Source: a virus (taxonomy: Duplodnaviria; Heunggongvirae; Uroviricota; Caudoviricetes). Taken from it: a DNA stretch of 64,000 nucleotides. The notes below the pieces were generated by a model, which did not search any database, was not told the DNA's origin, and saw nothing but the letters and a program-made list of their open reading frames with translations. How positions within the stretch are numbered: the stretch's first letter is position 1; every line of letters begins with the position of its first letter. The translations under genes and the position numbers were made by a program. Where the stretch lies: IMG/VR virus record IMGVR_UViG_2675903313_000009; one strand, given 5' to 3'. Of the stretch, positions 1 through 57,220 are shown piece by piece.

Positions 1-3
1 GTC

Positions 4-711
4 TTGTCTGAAATGCCGAGAGCGACGAGAATTATCGCTCTCGGTGAGTTCTATTTTATCTCCCGAGGTTTCGATCTAATTCGATTTACCGAATACGAGC
101 TTGTTGATTCGGCCTATGAACGCTGTATTGTTGGCGAGTGTCTTGAGTCATGTGATCCTGATTACCAAGAGCAGGAAGTTAAGCGACTCAAACGTGCTGG
201 TTACACACCTCTTGAGATAGGAGCAGAAATTGAATCCTACAAGTTGCATGTGGGGCAGCCAGTCCAAACAGTCTTCCGCGTGGCCTACTGCGAGTTTCCA
301 ATCAAGGATAAATCTGGAGTAAAAGTCAGCGCCAAGCAGATTAGAGGGGTTTTTACTCATGCTGATTATATGGGATTAGGCATCGCAAGTTTTGCTTACC
401 TTTATCTCGTAGATAAGTATCAGTACTTGGTTTGCGATACGTTACAGACGGTAAAAGGCGCAACTCTTTGGGCTGTGAGTATGCGCAAACATGGACTGGT
501 CGAAATTTACGATACGAAGAACGAAAATTTTATAGAGGAATTGGGTGAGGATGCCTGTGGCGTAAGTGGTTTTATTCCGTGGGATATCGGTAAGTCTGAC
601 GGAGGCCAGATGCGAAGACGTGAAGAGTGGGGGACTAATAAAATCAATCTCACCCCAGGTGCTTGTACTCATATAGTGAACATTCTGACTAAACGATCTA
701 TGAATCAATAA
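4..711 (+). CDS. hypothetical protein; ORF reaches the window edge so the 5' end may be truncated
   Basis: 235-codon ORF on the dominant coding strand, immediately followed by an intrinsic terminator; no recognisable motif. Confidence 0.45.
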   Translation: MSEMPRATRIIALGEFYFISRGFDLIRFTEYELVDSAYERCIVGECLESCDPDYQEQEVKRLKRAGYTPLEIGAEIESYKLHVGQPVQTVFRVAYCEFPIKDKSGVKVSAKQIRGVFTHADYMGLGIASFAYLYLVDKYQYLVCDTLQTVKGATLWAVSMRKHGLVEIYDTKNENFIEELGEDACGVSGFIPWDIGKSDGGQMRRREEWGTNKINLTPGACTHIVNILTKRSMNQ

Positions 712-732
712 ACCCGCTACGGCGGGTTTTTT
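712..732 (+). terminator. rho-independent terminator
   Basis: stem acccgc/gcgggt with 4-nt loop followed by T6. Confidence 0.7.
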
Positions 733-812
733 GTTATTAAGCCCCCCCTATGTACCTATCATTAAACCTTTACACCGCAGCCGTAGGCATTTAGGCTATA
801 TCACATATAAGA

Positions 813-825
813 AAACAAGTTGTTT
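813..825. promoter_or_regulatory. O1 dyad motif AAACAA-N-TTGTTT upstream of parA (candidate operator)
   Basis: aaacaagttgttt about 35 bp upstream of the parA start; same dyad recurs at least 6 more times in the window. Confidence 0.45.
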
Positions 826-860
826 CAGACGATAATTATATACGCAAAGGGAACTCTCCA

Positions 861-1529
861 ATGACCAAGATCTTTGTGGTTGGCGGCACAAAGGGCGGGC
901 CTGGCAAATCCACCGTTGCCCAGCAAATTGCCGTTTGCCTGAAAGTCAAAAAGAAGAAGAAGGTTTATATTACCGATATAGATATTCAGCGCACGACAAC
1001 GAGCTGGTGTGAAGACCGTCGACAGAACGAAGACCTTGAGCTGATTCCTTTTGCATACGTTCAGGATGACATCATTAAGCACCTAAAATCGCTTCAGGGT
1101 AGAGCTGAGTTTGTAGTGGTAGATGCTGGTGGCTTCGACTCCGAAATTCAGCGACAAGCGATGCTGATGGCTGACGTTATCATTATCCCGCTGCGTCCTA
1201 AGCGTCGTGATTTGAAATCTTTACGTGACATCGATCCTATTATCGACAATGTTCGCAATGTAAACGATAAAGTGAAGGTCCGCGCGGTCATGAACCAGTG
1301 CCCGGCTTTGCCATCACAAGTGTCTCGCATTCTGGCGGCTAAAGAGATTGTTGAGACGTTTGGCATCGAGTCTGCGCCAGTCAATCTATATAACCGCAAC
1401 GTCTATGATGATGCGGAAGAGTCTGGTCGTTCTATCTTTGAAATGACCGGTAGCGAGCGCGACAAAAAGGCGGAAGCCGAGTTTGAAGAATTTGTAGATT
1501 ATCTGTTGAGTCTGGAGGAAGAAGAATAA
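861..1529 (+). CDS. parA: ParA/MinD-like partition ATPase
   Basis: deviant Walker A GGTKGGPGKST near N-terminus; about 220 aa; followed by small RHH-type partner with overlapping stop/start. Confidence 0.8.
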   Translation: MTKIFVVGGTKGGPGKSTVAQQIAVCLKVKKKKKVYITDIDIQRTTTSWCEDRRQNEDLELIPFAYVQDDIIKHLKSLQGRAEFVVVDAGGFDSEIQRQAMLMADVIIIPLRPKRRDLKSLRDIDPIIDNVRNVNDKVKVRAVMNQCPALPSQVSRILAAKEIVETFGIESAPVNLYNRNVYDDAEESGRSIFEMTGSERDKKAEAEFEEFVDYLLSLEEEE

Positions 1530-1888
1530 TGTCCATGAAAATGGGTGACCTAGCAAAGCGCAAAGAGCCTGATGCACCGGCTAAGAACACAACTCCTTTG
1601 CGCCAACCAGTCAGACCACAGGGACGCCCGACTCGTGGCAAAGAGAAAATTAAAAGCCGCACAATGTCACTGGAGGACGAATACTTCGAACTGCTGGAGA
1701 TGATGAAGTTCATCCCTCGCTTCGAGAAGTTCACTCGTTCTGACGTGATTCGTGCTGCTATTTTCCATCTTGCGGAGAAGACACCGCAGGAAATCGAGGA
1801 CATCGTGAAACTTAACGAGGCGATCACAGCTGCCGATGTCACGATGCGTACCGATGAAATCAAACGCGAGTTGATGAAGAAAGGTTAA
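1529..1888 (+). CDS. ribbon-helix-helix (ParG/CopG-like) DNA-binding partner of ParA
   Basis: 119 aa, basic disordered N-terminus then predicted beta-alpha-alpha segment (KSRTMSL...EDEYFELLEMMK...RSDVIRAAIFHL); start overlaps parA stop. Confidence 0.5.
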   Translation: MSMKMGDLAKRKEPDAPAKNTTPLRQPVRPQGRPTRGKEKIKSRTMSLEDEYFELLEMMKFIPRFEKFTRSDVIRAAIFHLAEKTPQEIEDIVKLNEAITAADVTMRTDEIKRELMKKG

Positions 1889-1893
1889 TTTTA

Positions 1894-2652
1894 TTGAGGT
1901 GCTGCTTGGCACCTCTTTCTATAGGTTCCCTAATGCTCTACAAATATATTGGAAGTGAAGATTCGCAAAAAGTGTTACGTAACCTCAAACGGTTTGTAGA
2001 GGACGGCACTATCTCTGCTAGCGCACCTTCTTCATTCAACGACCCATCAGAGTTCAAAGTTTCGATAACGATGGGAGGTACAGAAGTGGAGCACCGGAAA
2101 CACTTTGAAGACAATGGATGTAAGGATTTTTCCTTTGAAGACTGGGATGCTGTAGCTCCTGAAGCTGCAAAATCGTTGGCTGTGGATTTGCGGAAAGAAT
2201 CATTAGGGGCTTTTGGTGTGGTGTGCTTGTCACCAAACGAAGATAACATCTTGATGTGGTCACATTACTCAGTGTCGCATAAAGGTTTCTGCATAGGCTT
2301 TGATGATGATTTTGTTACCTCTATTGAGGGGTATCACAGCTTTGATAATGTGAAATATATACCTTCTGTTCCCGTGTTCGATGAAGTTACAGATGAGTTT
2401 AAGGTACTTTTTGATAAGCTCTTTTTCTACAAGCACGAATGCTGGAAATATGAGGAAGAACAAAGGGTTATTACTAAAAAAATAGGCGCTCAGGCATTTG
2501 ATAAGAAATATATTAGAGAGATCATTCTTGGACATAACGTTTCTCCTGAAGTAGAAGAATATGCCCGGACACAGCTAGACACGAGCATCGAGGTTTACAA
2601 AATGAGTACACCTGATGATGGTTATCTTCTTGTCAAAGAAAAGCTGAAGTAG
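1894..2652 (+). CDS. hypothetical accessory protein (motifs reminiscent of DUF2971-type proteins; unverified); alternative ATG start at 1933
   Basis: ORF with lower GC than replication genes; motifs NDPSEF and LMWSHYSVSHKGFCIGF; TTG start at 1894 or ATG at 1933. Confidence 0.5.
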   Translation: MRCCLAPLSIGSLMLYKYIGSEDSQKVLRNLKRFVEDGTISASAPSSFNDPSEFKVSITMGGTEVEHRKHFEDNGCKDFSFEDWDAVAPEAAKSLAVDLRKESLGAFGVVCLSPNEDNILMWSHYSVSHKGFCIGFDDDFVTSIEGYHSFDNVKYIPSVPVFDEVTDEFKVLFDKLFFYKHECWKYEEEQRVITKKIGAQAFDKKYIREIILGHNVSPEVEEYARTQLDTSIEVYKMSTPDDGYLLVKEKLK

Positions 2653-4829: not shown

Positions 4830-4841
4830 CTAATACTAGAA

Positions 4842-4854
4842 AACAATTTGTTTA
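4842..4854. promoter_or_regulatory. O1 dyad motif (candidate operator) upstream of helicase gene
   Basis: agaaaacaatttgtttaaaa about 20 bp upstream of the ATG at 4873. Confidence 0.45.
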
Positions 4855-13608: not shown

Positions 13609-13683
13609 GATGGTGTAGCTCAGCGGTAGAGCAGTTGGCTGTTAACCAACTGGTCGGTGGTTCGAATCCACCCACCATCGCCA
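13609..13683 (+). tRNA. tRNA-Asn (anticodon GUU)
   Basis: cloverleaf read by eye: acceptor GATGGTG/CACCATC, anticodon loop CTGTTAA, T-loop TTCGAAT, encoded CCA. Confidence 0.85.
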
Positions 13684-13688
13684 ATTTA

Positions 13689-13775
13689 GGGGAGTTAGTC
13701 CGTAGAGGTAGCGGTGTAGACTGTAAATCTACTGTCATGGCGACTCGGGTGGTTCGACTCCATCACTCCCCACCA
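13689..13775 (+). tRNA. tRNA-Tyr (anticodon GUA), class II with long variable arm
   Basis: acceptor GGGGAGT/ACTCCCC, anticodon stem GTAGA/TCTAC with loop CTGTAAA, T-loop TTCGACT, encoded CCA; D-arm not fully resolved. Confidence 0.7.
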
Positions 13776-13779
13776 AATT

Positions 13780-13855
13780 GCCGGTTTAGCTCAGTTGGTA
13801 GAGCAGTCGCTTTGTAAGCGAATGGCCAGCGGTTCAAGTCCGTTAACCGGCACCA
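13780..13855 (+). tRNA. tRNA-Thr (anticodon UGU)
   Basis: acceptor GCCGGTT/AACCGGC, D-arm GCTC-AGTTGGTA-GAGC, anticodon loop TTTGTAA, T-loop TTCAAGT, encoded CCA. Confidence 0.8.
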
Positions 13856-13863
13856 ACACAACA

Positions 13864-13939
13864 GGTAAGAGCATTGGGCGAATCGGCGATACTGACCCAC
13901 AAGGCCGTAAATCGATAGAGTCAGACCAGTGCTCTTACC
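13864..13939 (+). other. inverted-repeat hairpin between tRNA-Thr and tRNA-Ser (14-bp stem)
   Basis: ggtaagagcattgg pairs with ccagtgctcttacc (one G-U), loop about 48 nt. Confidence 0.5.
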
Positions 13940-14045
13940 GTTGTGATGAATGCACAGGCTGATGTGCCGCAACTACAGTAGTGCGCGCTTTGCGGGGCTT
14001 GCTACAACCCTGTGTCGGAGTTCAGTACCGACCATCACAATAGCT

Positions 14046-14132
14046 GGAGAGTAGGGAGCATGGTGCTCAAGCGGTCTTGAAAACCGTTCCATTGTGCAAA
14101 CGATGATGGTTCGATTCCATTACTCTCCGCCA
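14046..14132 (+). tRNA. tRNA-Ser (anticodon UGA), class II
   Basis: acceptor GGAGAGT/ACTCTCC, anticodon stem GCGGT/ACCGT with loop CTTGAAA, long variable arm, T-loop TTCGATT, encoded CCA. Confidence 0.7.
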
Positions 14133-16217: not shown

Positions 16218-17321
16218 ATGAAAAATAGCTTTGACAGAGCACGCGCTGCGGAGAACACCTCAAAAGAGGCGATTGAGTATCTCGAAAGAGCATCTCAAAT
16301 GCAGGCCGTTATGATCTCGCAGGTCAGCAATGACATGAGATTCTCGGACGCATTCATGTTATTCACTCGCTTATCTCTGCTGATAACAAGACGTCGGCCA
16401 GAGATCGCTGTTCATTGTATTTTGATACATGTTTTGCCGCACATTGCCGATGTAAAAGTAAGTGACATTAATAGGTTCATGGTGAACCAACTGGTCAACC
16501 CACTAATACTGGATGGCAAAATTGTTATGGGCCGCCGCGTTTTCTCTCTGATGAAGCAGTTCCTTAGCTGGTGCGCCTTCCAGGGGATGATAGACGTGTC
16601 ACCGTTAAACGATATGTCACTAAACAAAGTTGCCGGTGGCGCAAAGCCCACACCTCGCGAGCGGAAGCTGACCGACGCAGAGGTATGGGTGTTCTGGAAT
16701 ATATGGGACTACTTCAATGTGTGCGCTGGTACAAAATGGGCGGCCAGGCTGTGTCTTGTATCCGCAAGACGACCTGACGAAGTACTGCGGGCTAAAAAAA
16801 GTGAGTTCAATCTTAAGCGTGGGGTTTGGAATCAAGGCAAGAGGAACAAATCTGCCCGTGAGCATTCGCTGCCTTTAAGCACATTAATGCGCACATGTAT
16901 TGAAGAGTTGTTCGAATACGGTAAAGGCAGCCAGTGGCTCGTGCCTTCGAATAAAAAAATCGGGAAAGACCTTCCTATGTCTAAAGTGGCAATAGCCCAG
17001 GCATTACGTCGTATCCTGGAACGACCAGAACTGATGGAGCTTGAGCCATTTACACCCCGAGACTTGCGCCGTACTGCGCGTAGTTACTTCCCAGCATTAG
17101 GCATAAGCCAGGAGGTATCACGCAAAATCATGAACCACAGTCTTGAGGGGATAGATCGAGTCTACGACCGGCACGATTATATGGACGAGATGCGAGACGC
17201 CTTAGAAAGTTTCTCGACGTACATCGCATCAATCGTAGAGCAACCGGATTTAGACGAAATTGACCACAAATTCAAGGGAGATCGTCTATCAACAGAGCTT
17301 ATTCGTGTAAATTTTTCATAG
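16218..17321 (+). CDS. tyrosine recombinase (integrase/resolvase family)
   Basis: catalytic-domain motifs LVSARRPDE, TPRDLRRTARSYF and HSLEGIDRVYDRHDY (R...H-x-x-R...Y). Confidence 0.8.
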   Translation: MKNSFDRARAAENTSKEAIEYLERASQMQAVMISQVSNDMRFSDAFMLFTRLSLLITRRRPEIAVHCILIHVLPHIADVKVSDINRFMVNQLVNPLILDGKIVMGRRVFSLMKQFLSWCAFQGMIDVSPLNDMSLNKVAGGAKPTPRERKLTDAEVWVFWNIWDYFNVCAGTKWAARLCLVSARRPDEVLRAKKSEFNLKRGVWNQGKRNKSAREHSLPLSTLMRTCIEELFEYGKGSQWLVPSNKKIGKDLPMSKVAIAQALRRILERPELMELEPFTPRDLRRTARSYFPALGISQEVSRKIMNHSLEGIDRVYDRHDYMDEMRDALESFSTYIASIVEQPDLDEIDHKFKGDRLSTELIRVNFS

Positions 17322-17702
17322 AGACTTTATGGCCTCAACAACCTTTTGTGATGCGCCTTTCTCTTTACCGAATCGCTCGTTATATGCAGCAAGAACCTGT
17401 TTTTCGTCCTCGTTAAGAGGAGCGGTGCCTTCTTTGTATAAAAATGCTGCGAGTTCAGGTTGGCGTTCTTCCAGCACCATCATCATAAGACGACTTGGCT
17501 CAATACCCAGCGCCAGCGCCAACGGACGAACCTTATCGATAGGCAAAGGAATTTTGCCACTTTTAATTAAAGAAAGGTTGTTGGCATTTTTATAACCAAT
17601 AAGTCTGGCTATTTGGGCCTGACTCATAGGTGAGGATTCAATCAGCCCTGCGATAAAAGCAGCATAGCGACTTTCTATAAATTCAATCTTGTTGTCAGAC
17701 AT
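17316..17702 (-). CDS. XRE-family helix-turn-helix regulator (repressor-like)
   Basis: HTH SQAQIARLIGYKNANNLSLIKSGK; divergent from downstream genes; palindromic operator in its promoter. Confidence 0.6.
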   Translation of the reverse strand: MSDNKIEFIESRYAAFIAGLIESSPMSQAQIARLIGYKNANNLSLIKSGKIPLPIDKVRPLALALGIEPSRLMMMVLEERQPELAAFLYKEGTAPLNEDEKQVLAAYNERFGKEKGASQKVVEAIKSL

Positions 17703-18165: not shown

Positions 18166-18263
18166 CCCCTCTTCTCCCTGCGCGAATGGCTTAGTTCCCT
18201 GTTCGCGCAGTGCTACATTAAACACACTAGTAAATAATTTGTTTTCATAACAAAGGATTAGCC

Positions 18264-30622: not shown

Positions 30623-30641
30623 CGCAATTATCTTATTAAGA

Positions 30642-30654
30642 AAACAATTTGTTT
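30642..30654. promoter_or_regulatory. O1 dyad motif (candidate operator)
   Basis: aagaaaacaatttgtttaaaa about 17 bp upstream of the ATG at 30671. Confidence 0.45.
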
Positions 30655-30670
30655 AAAAGGATAAGAAAAC

Positions 30671-42498: not shown

Positions 42499-42561
42499 CA
42501 TATGGTGGGGGATATCCCCACCTTCTCTTTGATTTGTAAGCCTTGTTTAAACACATAAGAT

Positions 42562-42573
42562 AACAACTTGTTT
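42562..42573. promoter_or_regulatory. O1 dyad motif (candidate operator) upstream of nrdB
   Basis: gataacaacttgtttaaacg about 30 bp upstream of the ATG at 42605. Confidence 0.45.
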
Positions 42574-42604
42574 AAACGCACCAAAAAAGAAAAAGGAAAA
42601 ACAC

Positions 42605-52033: not shown

Positions 52034-52528
52034 ATGGCACGTCAAACCTATTTCACTTCTGTAACTAAACGTCCTCGTTCTTTACGTCAAATTTTGGCCG
52101 AATTATTTAGCGGTCGTGTTATGTCACGTCTTGATGAACTAGAGACTACCGTTCGGTTGCTGAATGAACGTTTAGATAATCAAGCGTCAGTTGTTGCGAA
52201 CGTGGGGGCGATTGTTGCCTCTGGTTCTTCACGCGAAGCGAAAAGTACACGGCCTTTAGTGAAGGAGAAAAACAACAAGGACAGTTCGAATGGAAAATTT
52301 TCAAAGAAAGAGGCTGAAACCAATGGCCTACGTTCTCATTATAGTTTCACTGGCGACGGTAGCCGTTCCAGCCGGCCAGAGCCTTTTGATGCCGGGTTCA
52401 TCCATCACCACACCTCCGTCGACGACAATTACCACCACTCCAGTAGAGCGTCCTGTCACTCTGGATGGGATGACGGTGGATGCGATACCTCAAGTTCATC
52501 CGGTTACTCAGGATCATGCTGTGACTAA
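52034..52528 (+). CDS. hypothetical protein (3' part overlaps 52323-52541 in another frame; extent uncertain)
   Basis: N-terminal 95 residues look protein-like; C-terminal part low-complexity S/G/H/C-rich. Confidence 0.3.
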   Translation: MARQTYFTSVTKRPRSLRQILAELFSGRVMSRLDELETTVRLLNERLDNQASVVANVGAIVASGSSREAKSTRPLVKEKNNKDSSNGKFSKKEAETNGLRSHYSFTGDGSRSSRPEPFDAGFIHHHTSVDDNYHHSSRASCHSGWDDGGCDTSSSSGYSGSCCD

Positions 52529-52541
52529 GGCGGTTGTATGA
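52323..52541 (+). CDS. small membrane/secreted protein with Thr/Pro-rich linker
   Basis: ATG with agagg 9 nt upstream; hydrophobic N-terminus MAYVLIIVSLATVAVPA; ORF open from 52290. Confidence 0.35.
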   Translation: MAYVLIIVSLATVAVPAGQSLLMPGSSITTPPSTTITTTPVERPVTLDGMTVDAIPQVHPVTQDHAVTKAVV

Positions 52542-52726
52542 ACTGGTTTTCAAATCACTTTGGAAAAATTTGGCTGGCAATTCTTGCCCTCATGGCCGCC
52601 GGTTGGGTATCGAACATTATAAAACTTGTTTGCTCTGGCGATCTCCAGTTTCAGGCTGGCATGACCTTGGCTCGTGTAGTTGGGATTTTTGTTTTTCCAG
52701 TCGGTTCGGTACTTGGTTATTTCTGA
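52538..52726 (+). CDS. small two-TM membrane protein
   Basis: 62 aa, two hydrophobic helices; start overlaps the previous stop (ATGA). Confidence 0.4.
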   Translation: MNWFSNHFGKIWLAILALMAAGWVSNIIKLVCSGDLQFQAGMTLARVVGIFVFPVGSVLGYF

Positions 52727-52782
52727 CGGCTGTTAGTGCATATGCATTGACCATCTTTGCGTAAGCAATTTATGTAATTAGA

Positions 52783-52795
52783 AAACAACTTGTTT
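52783..52795. promoter_or_regulatory. O1 dyad motif (candidate operator) upstream of TerB-like gene
   Basis: agaaaacaacttgttttgac about 25 bp upstream of the ATG at 52820. Confidence 0.45.
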
Positions 52796-52819
52796 TGACA
52801 AATAATAAAAGGAAAACAC

Positions 52820-53245
52820 ATGTTAGGTTTCTTCAAAAAGAAAACTCGTAAAGCTGTTATCGAAGTCAAAAAAATGGAGAACCGTGATGCGGTTGAGGCC
52901 ACCGTGTGGGGCGCGTACATGATCTCCTATGCCGACGGCACATGTGACGCAAAAGAAATTGCCATTCTTGAGAAGACAATTGCAGCTCTGCCTGCGTTTT
53001 CTCCGTTTGCTGGTGAAATTGCCCAAATGAGCGCCAATATCCGTGCTCGTTACGAAGCGTCCCCTCGTTCTGCTAATGCACAGGCTATTCGTGAGCTGTC
53101 TGATATTGCGGGTACTCCAGAGGCGGTCGATGTTCTGTGTCTGTGCCTTGATATTGCCGATCAGGACGGCATTGGTGAACAAGAAGAGCAGGCACTGAAA
53201 AAGATCGCCCAGGCGCTTCAGTTGTCACTGGATGCTTATCTCTAA
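52820..53245 (+). CDS. TerB-like domain protein
   Basis: two ADG...E repeats (ISYADGTCDAKEIAILEK and DIADQDGIGEQEEQALKKIAQAL) typical of TerB-type domains; 141 aa. Confidence 0.5.
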   Translation: MLGFFKKKTRKAVIEVKKMENRDAVEATVWGAYMISYADGTCDAKEIAILEKTIAALPAFSPFAGEIAQMSANIRARYEASPRSANAQAIRELSDIAGTPEAVDVLCLCLDIADQDGIGEQEEQALKKIAQALQLSLDAYL

Positions 53246-53403
53246 TGCTTGAGAGATTCCGGCTTGTGATCGTCATTGCTCTTCTGGTGATGGCGGTGTT
53301 GGTGGATTTTACGGGAAAGATGATGTCTGTCATTTCTGATGGCGTCCTCATTGGTTTGGCGATCTACTTCGCTTATCCGTTAGTTCGTAAAGCAAAGTGT
53401 TAA
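53245..53403 (+). CDS. small membrane protein
   Basis: 52 aa hydrophobic ORF; ATG overlaps the TerB-like stop (TAATG); followed by a terminator. Confidence 0.4.
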   Translation: MLERFRLVIVIALLVMAVLVDFTGKMMSVISDGVLIGLAIYFAYPLVRKAKC

Positions 53404-53405
53404 TG

Positions 53406-53435
53406 ACAAGGGCCATTTGGCCCTTGTGTTTCGTT
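53406..53435 (+). terminator. rho-independent terminator
   Basis: stem acaagggcc/ggcccttgt followed by gtttcgtt. Confidence 0.65.
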
Positions 53436-53511
53436 GACCGAAATAGAGAGTTTGCACCTTTACGTTTAGCTTGCTCCCCTTTTATGCCACATCACAATAA
53501 AGCCAATAAGA

Positions 53512-53524
53512 AAACAACTTGTTT
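53512..53524. promoter_or_regulatory. O1 dyad motif (candidate operator)
   Basis: aagaaaacaacttgtttaag about 18 bp upstream of the ATG at 53543. Confidence 0.45.
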
Positions 53525-53542
53525 AAGCATTAAGGAAAACAC

Positions 53543-54109
53543 ATGTGCGAGAAATGCAAAGCAATAGCTGATGAACAAAACGCCCTATTCGAAGAAATGG
53601 ATGCTAATGAACTTGTCAAAATGTTAGGCATTGTTCGGGGAACAGAAGACGTTTCTATATTTGAGAGACTGTTTACAGTACTTAATTTTAATTCCACCTT
53701 TGAAGAGCCAACTCAGGTTGTAGCTTTGGCACACCATTTCGGTGTTCATTATCTTGCCGAAAAAGAGCGCGCTAATAAGTTGCAGGCGACTTTGGATATG
53801 GTGAGCGAGACTCAAGGAACCCATGACGGTAACAATAGTGAGACGATTATTGCCAGCAAAGATCGTGAAATTGCCGGACTTAAGTCTTCTCTAACGATGT
53901 TGATGTCTGCAATCAATCTTATGTCTTCTAAAGCGGGATATAAAATGCCATCACTAAACAGTGACGATCCAATGGCCGTTCGCCAGCTTTTGGGAGCAAT
54001 GGCCGACCAGCTTGATGATACGAAAAGTCGGCTTGAAGACATGATGCGGGAGCTTACGCATCGCCACGACTTGAATAAGCAACCGCACAAAACGCAATAC
54101 GCACTCTAA
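53543..54109 (+). CDS. hypothetical protein
   Basis: 188 aa; start context aaggaaaacacATG. Confidence 0.5.
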   Translation: MCEKCKAIADEQNALFEEMDANELVKMLGIVRGTEDVSIFERLFTVLNFNSTFEEPTQVVALAHHFGVHYLAEKERANKLQATLDMVSETQGTHDGNNSETIIASKDREIAGLKSSLTMLMSAINLMSSKAGYKMPSLNSDDPMAVRQLLGAMADQLDDTKSRLEDMMRELTHRHDLNKQPHKTQYAL

Positions 54110-54250
54110 TACTGCACCAGTCGACAGGGGGCGAAAGCCCCCATTTTTACGCCTTAAATCTGCTGTAACGCCTATGAATGCAGCTTTTATGCCTTTTCAA
54201 GTTTGCGATAATTACACCAATCAGAAAACAAATTATTTAATGGTGTAATT

Positions 54251-57082: not shown

Positions 57083-57220
57083 GCGCTACAAATCCTTCTG
57101 CATGAATAAATAAAGGCCATAAGTTATGGCCTTAAATAAATTGTTTTCTACCTTTTCTTATTTGTGAAAATAAACCAGCACTTGGTAGTGCTTATGTAAC
57201 AGCAAAGAAGAGAAAAACAC

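Follow-up and report, generated by a model that had tools for sequence, protein, structure and literature searches.

Organization of the tciA–tciB cassette

The locus under study occupies positions 52770-53435 of a stretch of viral DNA of 64,000 nucleotides, the whole of which was analyzed and is called the window throughout. It contains, in this order, a dyad, an AGGA motif, an open reading frame (ORF) of 141 aa, an ORF of 52 aa and a hairpin (Table 1). The TAA stop codon of the first ORF (53243-53245) shares one nucleotide with the ATG of the second at 53245 (TAATG), and this layout predicts that the pair is translated as a coupled unit that is closed by a terminator. The block AAGGAAAACACATG is located at the Shine-Dalgarno sequence of the first ORF, and a second copy precedes the next gene at 53543. 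In comparisons with Klebsiella phage pJN2-26, the first ORF has a dN/dS of 0.03 and the second one of 0.23, and among four close relatives third codon positions account for 32 of the 46 variable columns of the first ORF. Since both ORFs evolve as coding sequence, and the features are present where the initial annotation of this locus had placed them, that observation is confirmed.

The cassette is almost certainly the phage-plasmid copy of the tciA–tciB gene pair of phage P1. This identification is based on matches to Pfam TerB and DUF3927 above their cut-offs and to PHROGs 632 and 1470, on 79% identity to P1 TciA, and additionally on a P1-like gene order and overlap, a profile match to 2JXU and a TerB-like fold. 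The pair is already named in databases, so that the finding itself is an ordinary and already known one. For example, PHROGs names both TciA and TciB and files both under 'moron/host takeover', the corresponding genes of phage Cyrano are annotated as 'P1 TciA-like' and 'P1 TciB-like', and both cassette proteins have identical, already annotated counterparts in RefSeq. Our results support the initial reading of the locus as essentially right; what went unrecognized in it was the P1 tciA/tciB identity.

Table 1. Features of the tciA–tciB cassette and of its immediate surroundings in the window.
Feature	Position	Strand	Remarks
Small ORF B	52290-52541	+	83 aa (72 aa from ATG 52323); phrog_15659
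Small ORF C	52538-52726	+	62 aa, two hydrophobic segments; phrog_6006, E 2.1e-25
15-bp dyad AAAACAA-C-TTGTTTT (earlier 'O1')	52782-52796	.	candidate operator/promoter-proximal element
tciA Shine-Dalgarno AGGA	52810-52813	+	6 nt before ATG, read from sequence
tciA	52820-53245	+	141-aa TerB-fold ORF
tciB	53245-53403	+	52-aa DUF3927 ORF, candidate inner-membrane hairpin
Intrinsic-terminator-like hairpin	53406-53427	+	closes two-gene unit, 9-bp GC-rich stem
Next dyad copy	53511-53525	.	17 nt before ATG of 188-aa ORF (53543-54109)
Third dyad copy	54223-54239	.	precedes DUF4942 gene

TciA belongs to a distant subfamily of TerB

The 141-aa protein had been called TerB-like from its motifs, with the Pfam TerB profile (PF05099) proposed as the check, and that profile does detect it, at 31.5 bits against a cut-off of 24.4 (E 2.4e-7, residues 33-136). 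It is 78.7% identical to P1 TciA (AF234173) across 141/141 residues and matches phrog_632, annotated as 'tellurite resistance', with an E value of 4.8e-63. TerB homology also holds at the profile level, as a profile of eight phage TciA sequences matches 2JXU (KP-TerB, a TerB of the ter-operon type with an experimentally solved structure) with an E value of 9e-15, residues 15-137 aligning to 21-144. A family profile is required for this, as a single-sequence phmmer search of TciA against the PDB gave no TerB match, and a tblastn search of TciA against plasmids did not reach ter-operon TerB. An AlphaFold model predicts an all-helical TciA that resembles TerB-like crystal structures. The TerB subfamily to which TciA belongs comprises 179 representatives at 50% clustering, nearly all of which are stand-alone proteins of 140-150 aa. 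An NCBIfam search returned no matches.

Two ADG...E repeats had been reported in this protein. Both acidic motifs are indeed present, as A38-D-G...E46 and A113-D-Q-D-G...E122, with the second thus reading ADQDG and not ADG. Residues D39, G40, E46, A113, D116 and E122 are invariant among eight phage homologues that share 36-79% identity. The charge of the protein is unevenly distributed, residues 1-22 having a net charge of +6 and the remaining acidic six-helix domain a net charge of -11. The association of TerB-like domains with conflict systems that had been drawn for this locus stands as an analogy, and it is not accompanied by a PADLOC match: in a search of PADLOC-DB v2 (E <= 0.01), neither TciA nor TciB nor any of the small ORFs upstream matched a model.

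TciB is a small DUF3927 protein with two hydrophobic segments

The description of the overlapping second ORF as a small membrane protein is borne out by Pfam DUF3927 (PF13064), which it matches at 46.6 bits against a cut-off of 25 (E 3.4e-12), and by the finding that 11 of 15 phage lineages have such an ORF directly after TerB (see below). It also matches phrog_1470, 'TciB-like', with an E value of 1.4e-21. A hydropathy and charge profile of TciB reveals two hydrophobic segments with basic residues at each end of the protein, which suggests a hairpin whose N and C termini both face the cytoplasm. Alignments show conserved DFT and S..DG motifs as well as conserved charged residues in or beside the membrane segments. 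Sequence conservation is otherwise limited, with the P1 and window TciB proteins only 38% identical and an Erwinia TciB-like protein lacking both of the conserved Asp residues. DUF3927 sequences fall into roughly 650 clusters.

We also considered whether TciB might be a fragment or relative of TerC, and rejected this as hhalign assigns a probability of 0.1% to its alignment with phage TerC and there is no Pfam TerC match. A third small membrane gene, tciC, is present only in two P1 records among those that we examined. A 54-aa ORF that follows tciB in the window was rejected as its equivalent, as this ORF lacks hydrophobic character, extends across the terminator and has no counterpart in the Klebsiella relative.

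A recurrent dyad precedes the cassette and a terminator closes it

A dyad upstream of the cassette was part of the initial annotation, and it proves to be an exact 15-bp palindrome with a 1-nt center, AAAACAACTTGTTTT, that ends 23 nt before the tciA ATG. It is over-represented in the window, where the pattern with up to two mismatches (<=2) occurs at 6 sites versus 0.32 expected, and a 17-mer version with up to three mismatches (<=3) at 13 sites versus 1.25 expected. Nine sites are good matches; all of these are located in non-coding gaps, and 8 of the 9 end 11-34 nt before a start codon on the + strand. The genes headed by a dyad code for a ParA/MipZ-like ATPase, a DnaB-like helicase, a CobT-like protein, a DUF7238 protein and NrdB, to which are added tciA itself, the 188-aa ORF and a DUF4942 methylase. 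Together with the two further copies downstream (Table 1), three dyad-headed units follow one another here, the cassette among them.

The dyad is identical in four close relatives of the window. In Klebsiella pJN2-26 the copy before tciA differs by one change at the center and one at the last base while the flanking intergenic DNA has diverged, and pJN2-26 retains the dyad at three syntenic positions, before tciA and before each of the next two genes. Additionally, the megablast match of the window to Klebsiella phages starts at position 52781, one base before the dyad. We found no consistent pair of sigma-70 -35 and -10 elements around the dyad, and the only promoter match that a scanner returned near it was rejected as it would leave no room for a ribosome-binding site. 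The dyad is therefore best described as a real and conserved element, probably regulatory, at or just after a putative transcription start, which may act as an operator, as part of a phage-specific promoter or as a site at the mRNA level. By the company it keeps, it would link tciAB with the replication and nucleotide-metabolism genes of the element. The designation of the cassette as 'O1-controlled' is a reasonable inference from the position of the dyad only. Since there is no terminator between ORF C and tciA, read-through from upstream may also contribute to expression. The DNA-binding proteins of the element include a 128-aa protein at 17316-17702, the counterpart of which in pTW10722_119 is annotated as an HTH regulator. 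Our literature search found no report on regulation in SSU5/pSLy3-like phage-plasmids.

At the other end of the cassette, the terminator reported after the 52-aa ORF is supported by the stability of the hairpin, which is calculated as -21.6 kcal/mol (z = -5.5 versus shuffled sequences), and the hairpin of the Klebsiella orthologue has a compensatory A:T to G:C change in it. The T-tract of this terminator is weak, reading GTTTCGTT.

Distribution of the tciA–tciB pair

The 1.5 kb around the cassette match E. coli plasmid pTW10722_119 at 100% identity and phage Cyrano at 97% identity. The identity to pTW10722_119 is local, being confined to these 1.5 kb, and this plasmid bears copies of IS100, of which the window has none. 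On a larger scale, window positions 39500-64000 are ~99% identical to non-mobilizable plasmids of 107-111 kb from E. coli and Shigella, and these plasmids are SSU5/pSLy3-like phage-plasmids. The genes of pSLy3 have been reported to include 'DUF3927 family' and 'tellurite/colicin resistance' entries (Pfeifer et al., PMC9600943). PGAP annotates the same cassette in 209 of 5426 complete E. coli genomes. Of its 213 copies 211 are plasmid-borne, and the records listed all describe a tellurite(/colicin) resistance or TerB family protein together with a DUF3927 family protein. Within the family of the window, tciA is the most variable segment (46 of 426 alignment columns versus 1 of 189 and 5 of 206 in its neighbors), and a single backbone carries two circulating alleles of ~92% identity.

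Among 15 diverse phage loci with a TciA homologue, 11 have a TciB-like ORF directly downstream, either overlapping or separated by a few bases. These paired loci are from P1 (two alleles that are 35% identical), D6, two lambdoid phages, Klebsiella pJN2-26, Salmonella phage SP-058 (Schitoviridae), the Erwinia jumbo phage ChrisDB, Pseudomonas phage Nican01, in which the TciB-like ORF is unannotated, Pantoea phage LIET2 and Salmonella phage Arash. The reciprocal search, seeded with TciB and limited to one genome per species (Buttiauxella, Enterobacter, Pseudescherichia, Franconibacter, Rosenbergiella, Pantoea and others), found a TciA-like ORF directly upstream in all 10 bacterial species, and in one of these loci (L102) the TciA-like ORF is merely a 47-aa fragment. 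TerB followed by DUF3927 is a tightly linked two-gene module, in which the stop and start codons overlap or abut. Other arrangements of phage TerB occur in two N4-like vibriophages (MS02 and BUCT194) where TciB is absent and TerC is found beside TerB, and in Pseudomonas phages PMBT3 and Cygsa01 where TerB has neither TciB nor TerC within 1.2 kb.

We also looked among the 179 subfamily representatives for natural TerB–DUF3927 fusions that could provide Rosetta-stone evidence, and no genuine one was found. The sole candidate, TciA–TciB fusion P0101, is an artifact of a 1-nt frameshift in a P1-type locus; its AF2 model is poor (pTM 0.40), renders TciB as one long helix and is uninformative on how the two proteins might dock. 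A scan of IMG/VR with the lambdoid allele returned 348 loci, and as all of these are at least 96% identical they do not constitute independent evidence.

Upstream small ORFs and genomic neighborhood

Two small membrane ORFs had been placed immediately upstream of the cassette (52323-52541 and 52538-52726), and both are real, with homologues in pJN2-26 that are 57% and 53% identical, respectively. The product of ORF B is hydrophobic near its N terminus and ends in a tail rich in Thr and Pro, and an ATGA overlap links ORF B to ORF C. The ORF C homologue of pJN2-26 is unannotated (positions 2252-2440 of locus L010). ORF B lies in the +1 frame within the 3' third of an ORF annotated by PGAP at 52034-52528. 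This longer frame has remained open in E. coli as well as in Klebsiella, and a dN/dS of 0.14 shows that its N-terminal part is clearly under selection. Within the overlap, dN/dS is 0.37 for the ORF B frame versus 0.95 for the 52034-52528 frame, so that selection there acts on the ORF B frame. In P1, lambdoid and lytic phages, tciAB occurs without ORFs B and C. As we observed ORFs B and C next to tciAB in this family only, the 'membrane-directed cluster' of the initial annotation holds for the existence and conservation of the small ORFs, and is otherwise a matter of synteny within this phage-plasmid family.

The wider neighbors of the cassette are genes for RNase HI, the small ORFs, a 188-aa hypothetical protein and a DUF4942 methylase, and the cassette sits within a nucleotide-metabolism region of the window and not adjacent to its lysis genes. 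There is no terZ, terA, terC, terD or terE near the cassette. There are likewise no tRNA genes or Rfam elements near it, the tRNA genes of the window being located at 13.6-14.1 kb only.

Proposed role of TciAB and its alternatives

The genomic settings of tciAB in other phages provide some indication of when the pair is expressed. In P1, tciABC is located between the C1-controlled Oban operator and ban, and in lambdoid phages tciAB directly follows the Q antiterminator gene and precedes the lysis genes; lytic-cycle transcription would reach the pair in both positions. Strictly lytic phages also carry tciAB. The Arash homologue is abundant in the mass-spectrometry proteome of phage preparations (PMC10585845). 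In the window, the presence of the dyad before helicase, NrdB, ParA-like and methyltransferase genes likewise fits with lytic-phase expression. Together, the P1 and lambdoid placements, carriage by lytic phages and the Arash proteome argue for action in lytic development over lysogenic conversion. The pair is also dispensable, as tciA, tciB and tciC of P1 were found non-essential by CRISPRi (PMC10695390), and the tci operon is one of eight variable regions in P1-like phage-plasmids, being absent in approximately half of one subgroup (PMC9603915). Our literature search turned up no experimental work on the TciA or TciB proteins of any phage, and the name 'tellurite/colicin resistance' rests on homology only.

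From these observations we tentatively propose, as a reading whose likelihood we place a little below even, that TciAB is a membrane-associated protection or exclusion module of the lytic phase. TciB would place the module in the inner membrane. TciA, through its basic N-terminal tail and its acidic, probably cation-binding DG...E sites, would then form reversible associations with the membrane and with TciB, in the way that TerB may with TerC in ter operons. Together, the two proteins would adjust or guard a property of the inner membrane such as ion flux, membrane potential or integrity. The cassette would be switched on with lytic or early genes from a promoter whose start region bears the dyad, and the benefit may be that the infected cell is shielded from superinfecting phages, from pore-forming colicins or from premature collapse. 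As an accessory function, tciAB would be dispensable for plaque formation. This mechanism is derived from the architecture of the module, from the TerC counterpart in vibriophages and from literature proposals on Ter and TerB proteins. For example, phage Ter genes have been proposed to act against superinfection (Aravind's group, PMC7824862), and TerB has been described as amphitropic, with TerB defense systems that include membrane effectors (bioRxiv 10.1101/2025.09.30.679545). Among the observations that count against this mechanism, TciB is predicted to have cytoplasmic tails of just 4-5 residues, which makes direct contact with TciA conjectural. TciB also has no detectable similarity to TerC, TerB occurs alone in PMBT3 and Cygsa01, and there is no PADLOC match.

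A more specific and doubtful version of this proposal is that TerB and DUF3927 constitute a self-contained 'mini-Ter' module, deployed in lytic growth by phages from many lineages, in which the DUF3927 hairpin replaces TerC as the membrane partner. Such a module might function as a sensor and effector of membrane state that excludes superinfecting phages or neutralizes abortive-infection defenses that target the membrane. If true, this would provide both a first concrete function and a minimal working unit for the TerB domain.

The homology of TciA to ter-operon TerB has also led to a different expectation, namely that the pair, expressed from the plasmid prophage, raises the resistance of the host to tellurite (oxidative/metalloid stress) and to colicins, to the benefit of the carrier strain. 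Ter operons confer tellurite, phage and colicin resistance (PMC9603915; PMC7824862), phage-plasmid reviews have suggested such a role (PMC11652158), and the PHROGs class 'moron/host takeover' given to both proteins would fit with it. However, TerB is the sole ter gene at this locus with no terZ/A/C/D/E nearby, strictly lytic phages bear the same pair without a lysogen to convert, the P1 and lambdoid pairs are in transcription units that depend on a repressor or on Q, and we found no experimental support in the literature, so that we consider lysogenic conversion unlikely. Another alternative is that, in the lytic cycle of the phage itself, TciA acts as a mimic of host TerB-type sensors or titrates them away, or engages membrane proteins of the host, either from the TerC family or others, and thereby blunts membrane-based abortive infection. 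TerB domains are indeed present in the validated defense systems Dionysus, Bunzi and Shango, the pair is found in lytic phages of many lineages, and the locus is highly variable and swapped between phages as is typical of conflict genes. But purifying selection on TciA is strong (dN/dS 0.03) and not diversifying, no host target is known and there is no similarity to known anti-defense or defense models, making counter-defense a distinctly unlikely role.

The remaining alternatives center on TciB. In the first of these, TciB would be a toxin of host takeover that depolarizes the membrane or blocks division in the manner of Kil or holin proteins, with TciA as its regulator or antidote, to arrest or reprogram the host early in the lytic cycle. 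A 52-aa hydrophobic peptide with two segments and conserved charged residues would suit this purpose, as would the strict order of A then B with translational coupling, which is like that of regulator/effector pairs; moreover, the P1 gene name contains 'inhibition of cell division', and a P1vir transcriptome paper places tciA/B/C with icd and kilA (bioRxiv 10.64898/2025.12.28.696737). That grouping was made by annotation and not by experiment, however, and the pair is stably kept on plasmid prophages (209 complete E. coli genomes), P1 can form plaques without it and no lysis genes adjoin it in the window, all of which leaves this role improbable to about the same degree as counter-defense. It is very unlikely, in our estimation, that the pair performs metal-ion housekeeping as a minimal Mn2+/Ca2+ unit, in which TerB would bind the ion and TciB would conduct or sense it, aiding enzymes such as the adjacent ribonucleotide reductase. 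The invariant acidic DG...E motifs of TciA, the conserved Asp residues in the membrane hairpin of TciB, the use by vibriophages of TerC (a metal-homeostasis membrane family) in place of TciB, and the location of the pair within the nucleotide-metabolism region of the window are all compatible with such a unit, yet homology between TciB and TerC is not detectable, the Erwinia TciB-like protein is without both Asp residues and metal binding by TerB is itself a prediction. The lytic-phase protection or exclusion module is the best supported of these readings.

Comparison with known systems

The structure of TerB has been available since 2008, and TerB has been linked to tellurite, colicin and phage resistance and is now found in several defense systems. 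The TerB of ter operons (terZABCDE(F), as in IncHI2 R478; KP-TerB, 2JXU) shares its Pfam family with TciA and has near full-length homology to it, with two DG...E motifs and a size of ~140-150 aa in common. It differs in that TciA belongs to a distant subfamily that single-sequence searches do not reach, and in that the window has no other ter genes and has a 52-aa DUF3927 protein as the partner instead of the multi-pass TerC. The vibriophages MS02 and BUCT194 are also comparable, as they code for a phage TerB of the same subfamily (34-36% identity) beside a gene for a membrane protein. In these phages, however, the partner is an upstream 339-aa protein of the TerC/Alx family and there is no DUF3927 protein. 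The TerB anti-phage systems (Dionysus, with DinB and its membrane and pore-forming partners, Bunzi and Shango) also combine a TerB-type domain with membrane proteins and have been proposed to keep watch over the membrane. In contrast to tciAB, which is phage-encoded with a partner of 52 aa, these systems are host-encoded, multi-gene and equipped with large effectors.

These comparisons place the cassette as a routinely annotated accessory pair of P1-like, SSU5/pSLy3-like and lambdoid phages. The pairing of TerB with DUF3927, together with its TerC counterpart in vibriophages, offers a small two-protein system (141 + 52 aa) for dissecting TerB. They also call for caution, in that the label 'tellurite/colicin resistance protein' on a phage-plasmid gene should not be taken to denote a resistance determinant.

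The closest known system is the P1 tciA–tciB(–tciC) locus (annotation of Lobocka et al. 2004, AF234173). Both loci have a 141-aa TciA, the two proteins being 78.7% identical, followed directly by a DUF3927 TciB of 52-54 aa, and in each the stop and start codons share 1 nt. Both loci belong to phage-plasmids of E. coli, and in both the function has been assigned by homology only. P1 differs in having tciC, which the window cassette does not. Additionally, the P1 pair resides inside the C1-controlled ban operon and is flanked by tRNA genes, whereas the window pair is a stand-alone unit with a dyad before it and a terminator after it, set among genes of DNA metabolism.

A recurrent motif heads tciAB and other genes

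The motif AGAAAACAAnTTGTTTA that precedes tciA occurs in nine copies in the window, directly 5' of ribosome-binding sites, where it heads early, replication and nucleotide-metabolism genes that are all on the + strand. It is also kept at syntenic positions in the Klebsiella phage-plasmid. A search for its regulator, for a transcription start site and for literature on the motif found none. The next unit downstream of tciAB that is headed by the dyad encodes a 188-aa protein, has its own terminator, and also has its gene adjoining tciAB in the Klebsiella relative. This protein belongs to phrog_5508, a group of unknown function, and matched no Pfam family.

Features of the tciAB region and of related phages
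Feature	Record	Position	Strand	Remark
Motif AGAAAACAAnTTGTTTA	window	810-826, 4838-4854, 18229-18245, 30639-30655, 42558-42574, 52780-52796, 53509-53525, 54223-54239, 57133-57149		
tRNA cluster	window	13609-14132		Asn, Tyr, Thr, Ser
Annotated ORF	window	52034-52528	+	164 aa
Embedded ORF	window	52290/52323-52541	+	83/72 aa; +1 frame of annotated ORF; hydrophobic segment at N-terminus
tciA	window	52820-53245		
188-aa protein ORF	window	53543-54109		
Terminator of 188-aa unit	window	54127-54142		
TerB homologue gp67	L097 (Salmonella phage Arash)	1132-1587		annotated 'structural protein'
TerC-TerB cluster	L007 (vibriophage MS02)	375-1923		
TerC-TerB cluster	L099 (vibriophage BUCT194)	1-1623		
TciB homologue	L006 (Pseudomonas phage Nican01)	1935-2117		unannotated
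Homologue of window ORF 52538-52726	L010 (Klebsiella phage pJN2-26)	2252-2440		unannotated

Variation and relatives of tciA and tciB

When the window is compared with L002, L012 and L013, phage-plasmids that otherwise hardly differ, tciA varies much more than the genes around it, with changes that are mostly synonymous. Additionally, the TciA alleles of two P1 records (L003 and L009) are only about 35% identical to each other's type. Together, this mostly synonymous variation and the divergent P1 alleles suggest that recombination frequently swaps alleles at the locus.

In six unrelated phages (P1, a P1 variant, D6, JLK-2012, ChrisDB and Nican01) tRNA genes, often Asn and Thr, lie within about 1.5 kb of tciAB; the tRNA cluster of the window is 39 kb away. 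This proximity may only reflect a common hot spot for accessory genes.

In the N4-like vibriophages MS02 and BUCT194, the gene directly 5' of a TciA-type TerB gene encodes a TerC-family membrane protein, and DUF3927 is absent from both clusters. BUCT194 has an additional TerB-family gene 5' of TerC, the MS02 counterpart of which is an incomplete ORF annotated merely as hypothetical. The label 'structural' on gp67 of the lytic phage Arash comes from its detection in mass-spectrometric data (77% coverage, 432 spectra). Since many enzymes are likewise present in the same proteome, genuine virion association is doubtful; the detection does show strong expression during lytic infection. Two conserved small genes are missing from the annotation of public records, one in Nican01 and one in pJN2-26.

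Overlapping frames upstream of tciA

Two long reading frames overlap at 52034-52541, and neither is interrupted in E. coli or Klebsiella pJN2-26. Within the overlap, dN/dS is 0.37 in the frame of the small ORF versus 0.95 in the long frame, so that by this measure selection looks confined to the former. The layout resembles that of an embedded gene, as in Rz/Rz1, or that of a frameshift site.
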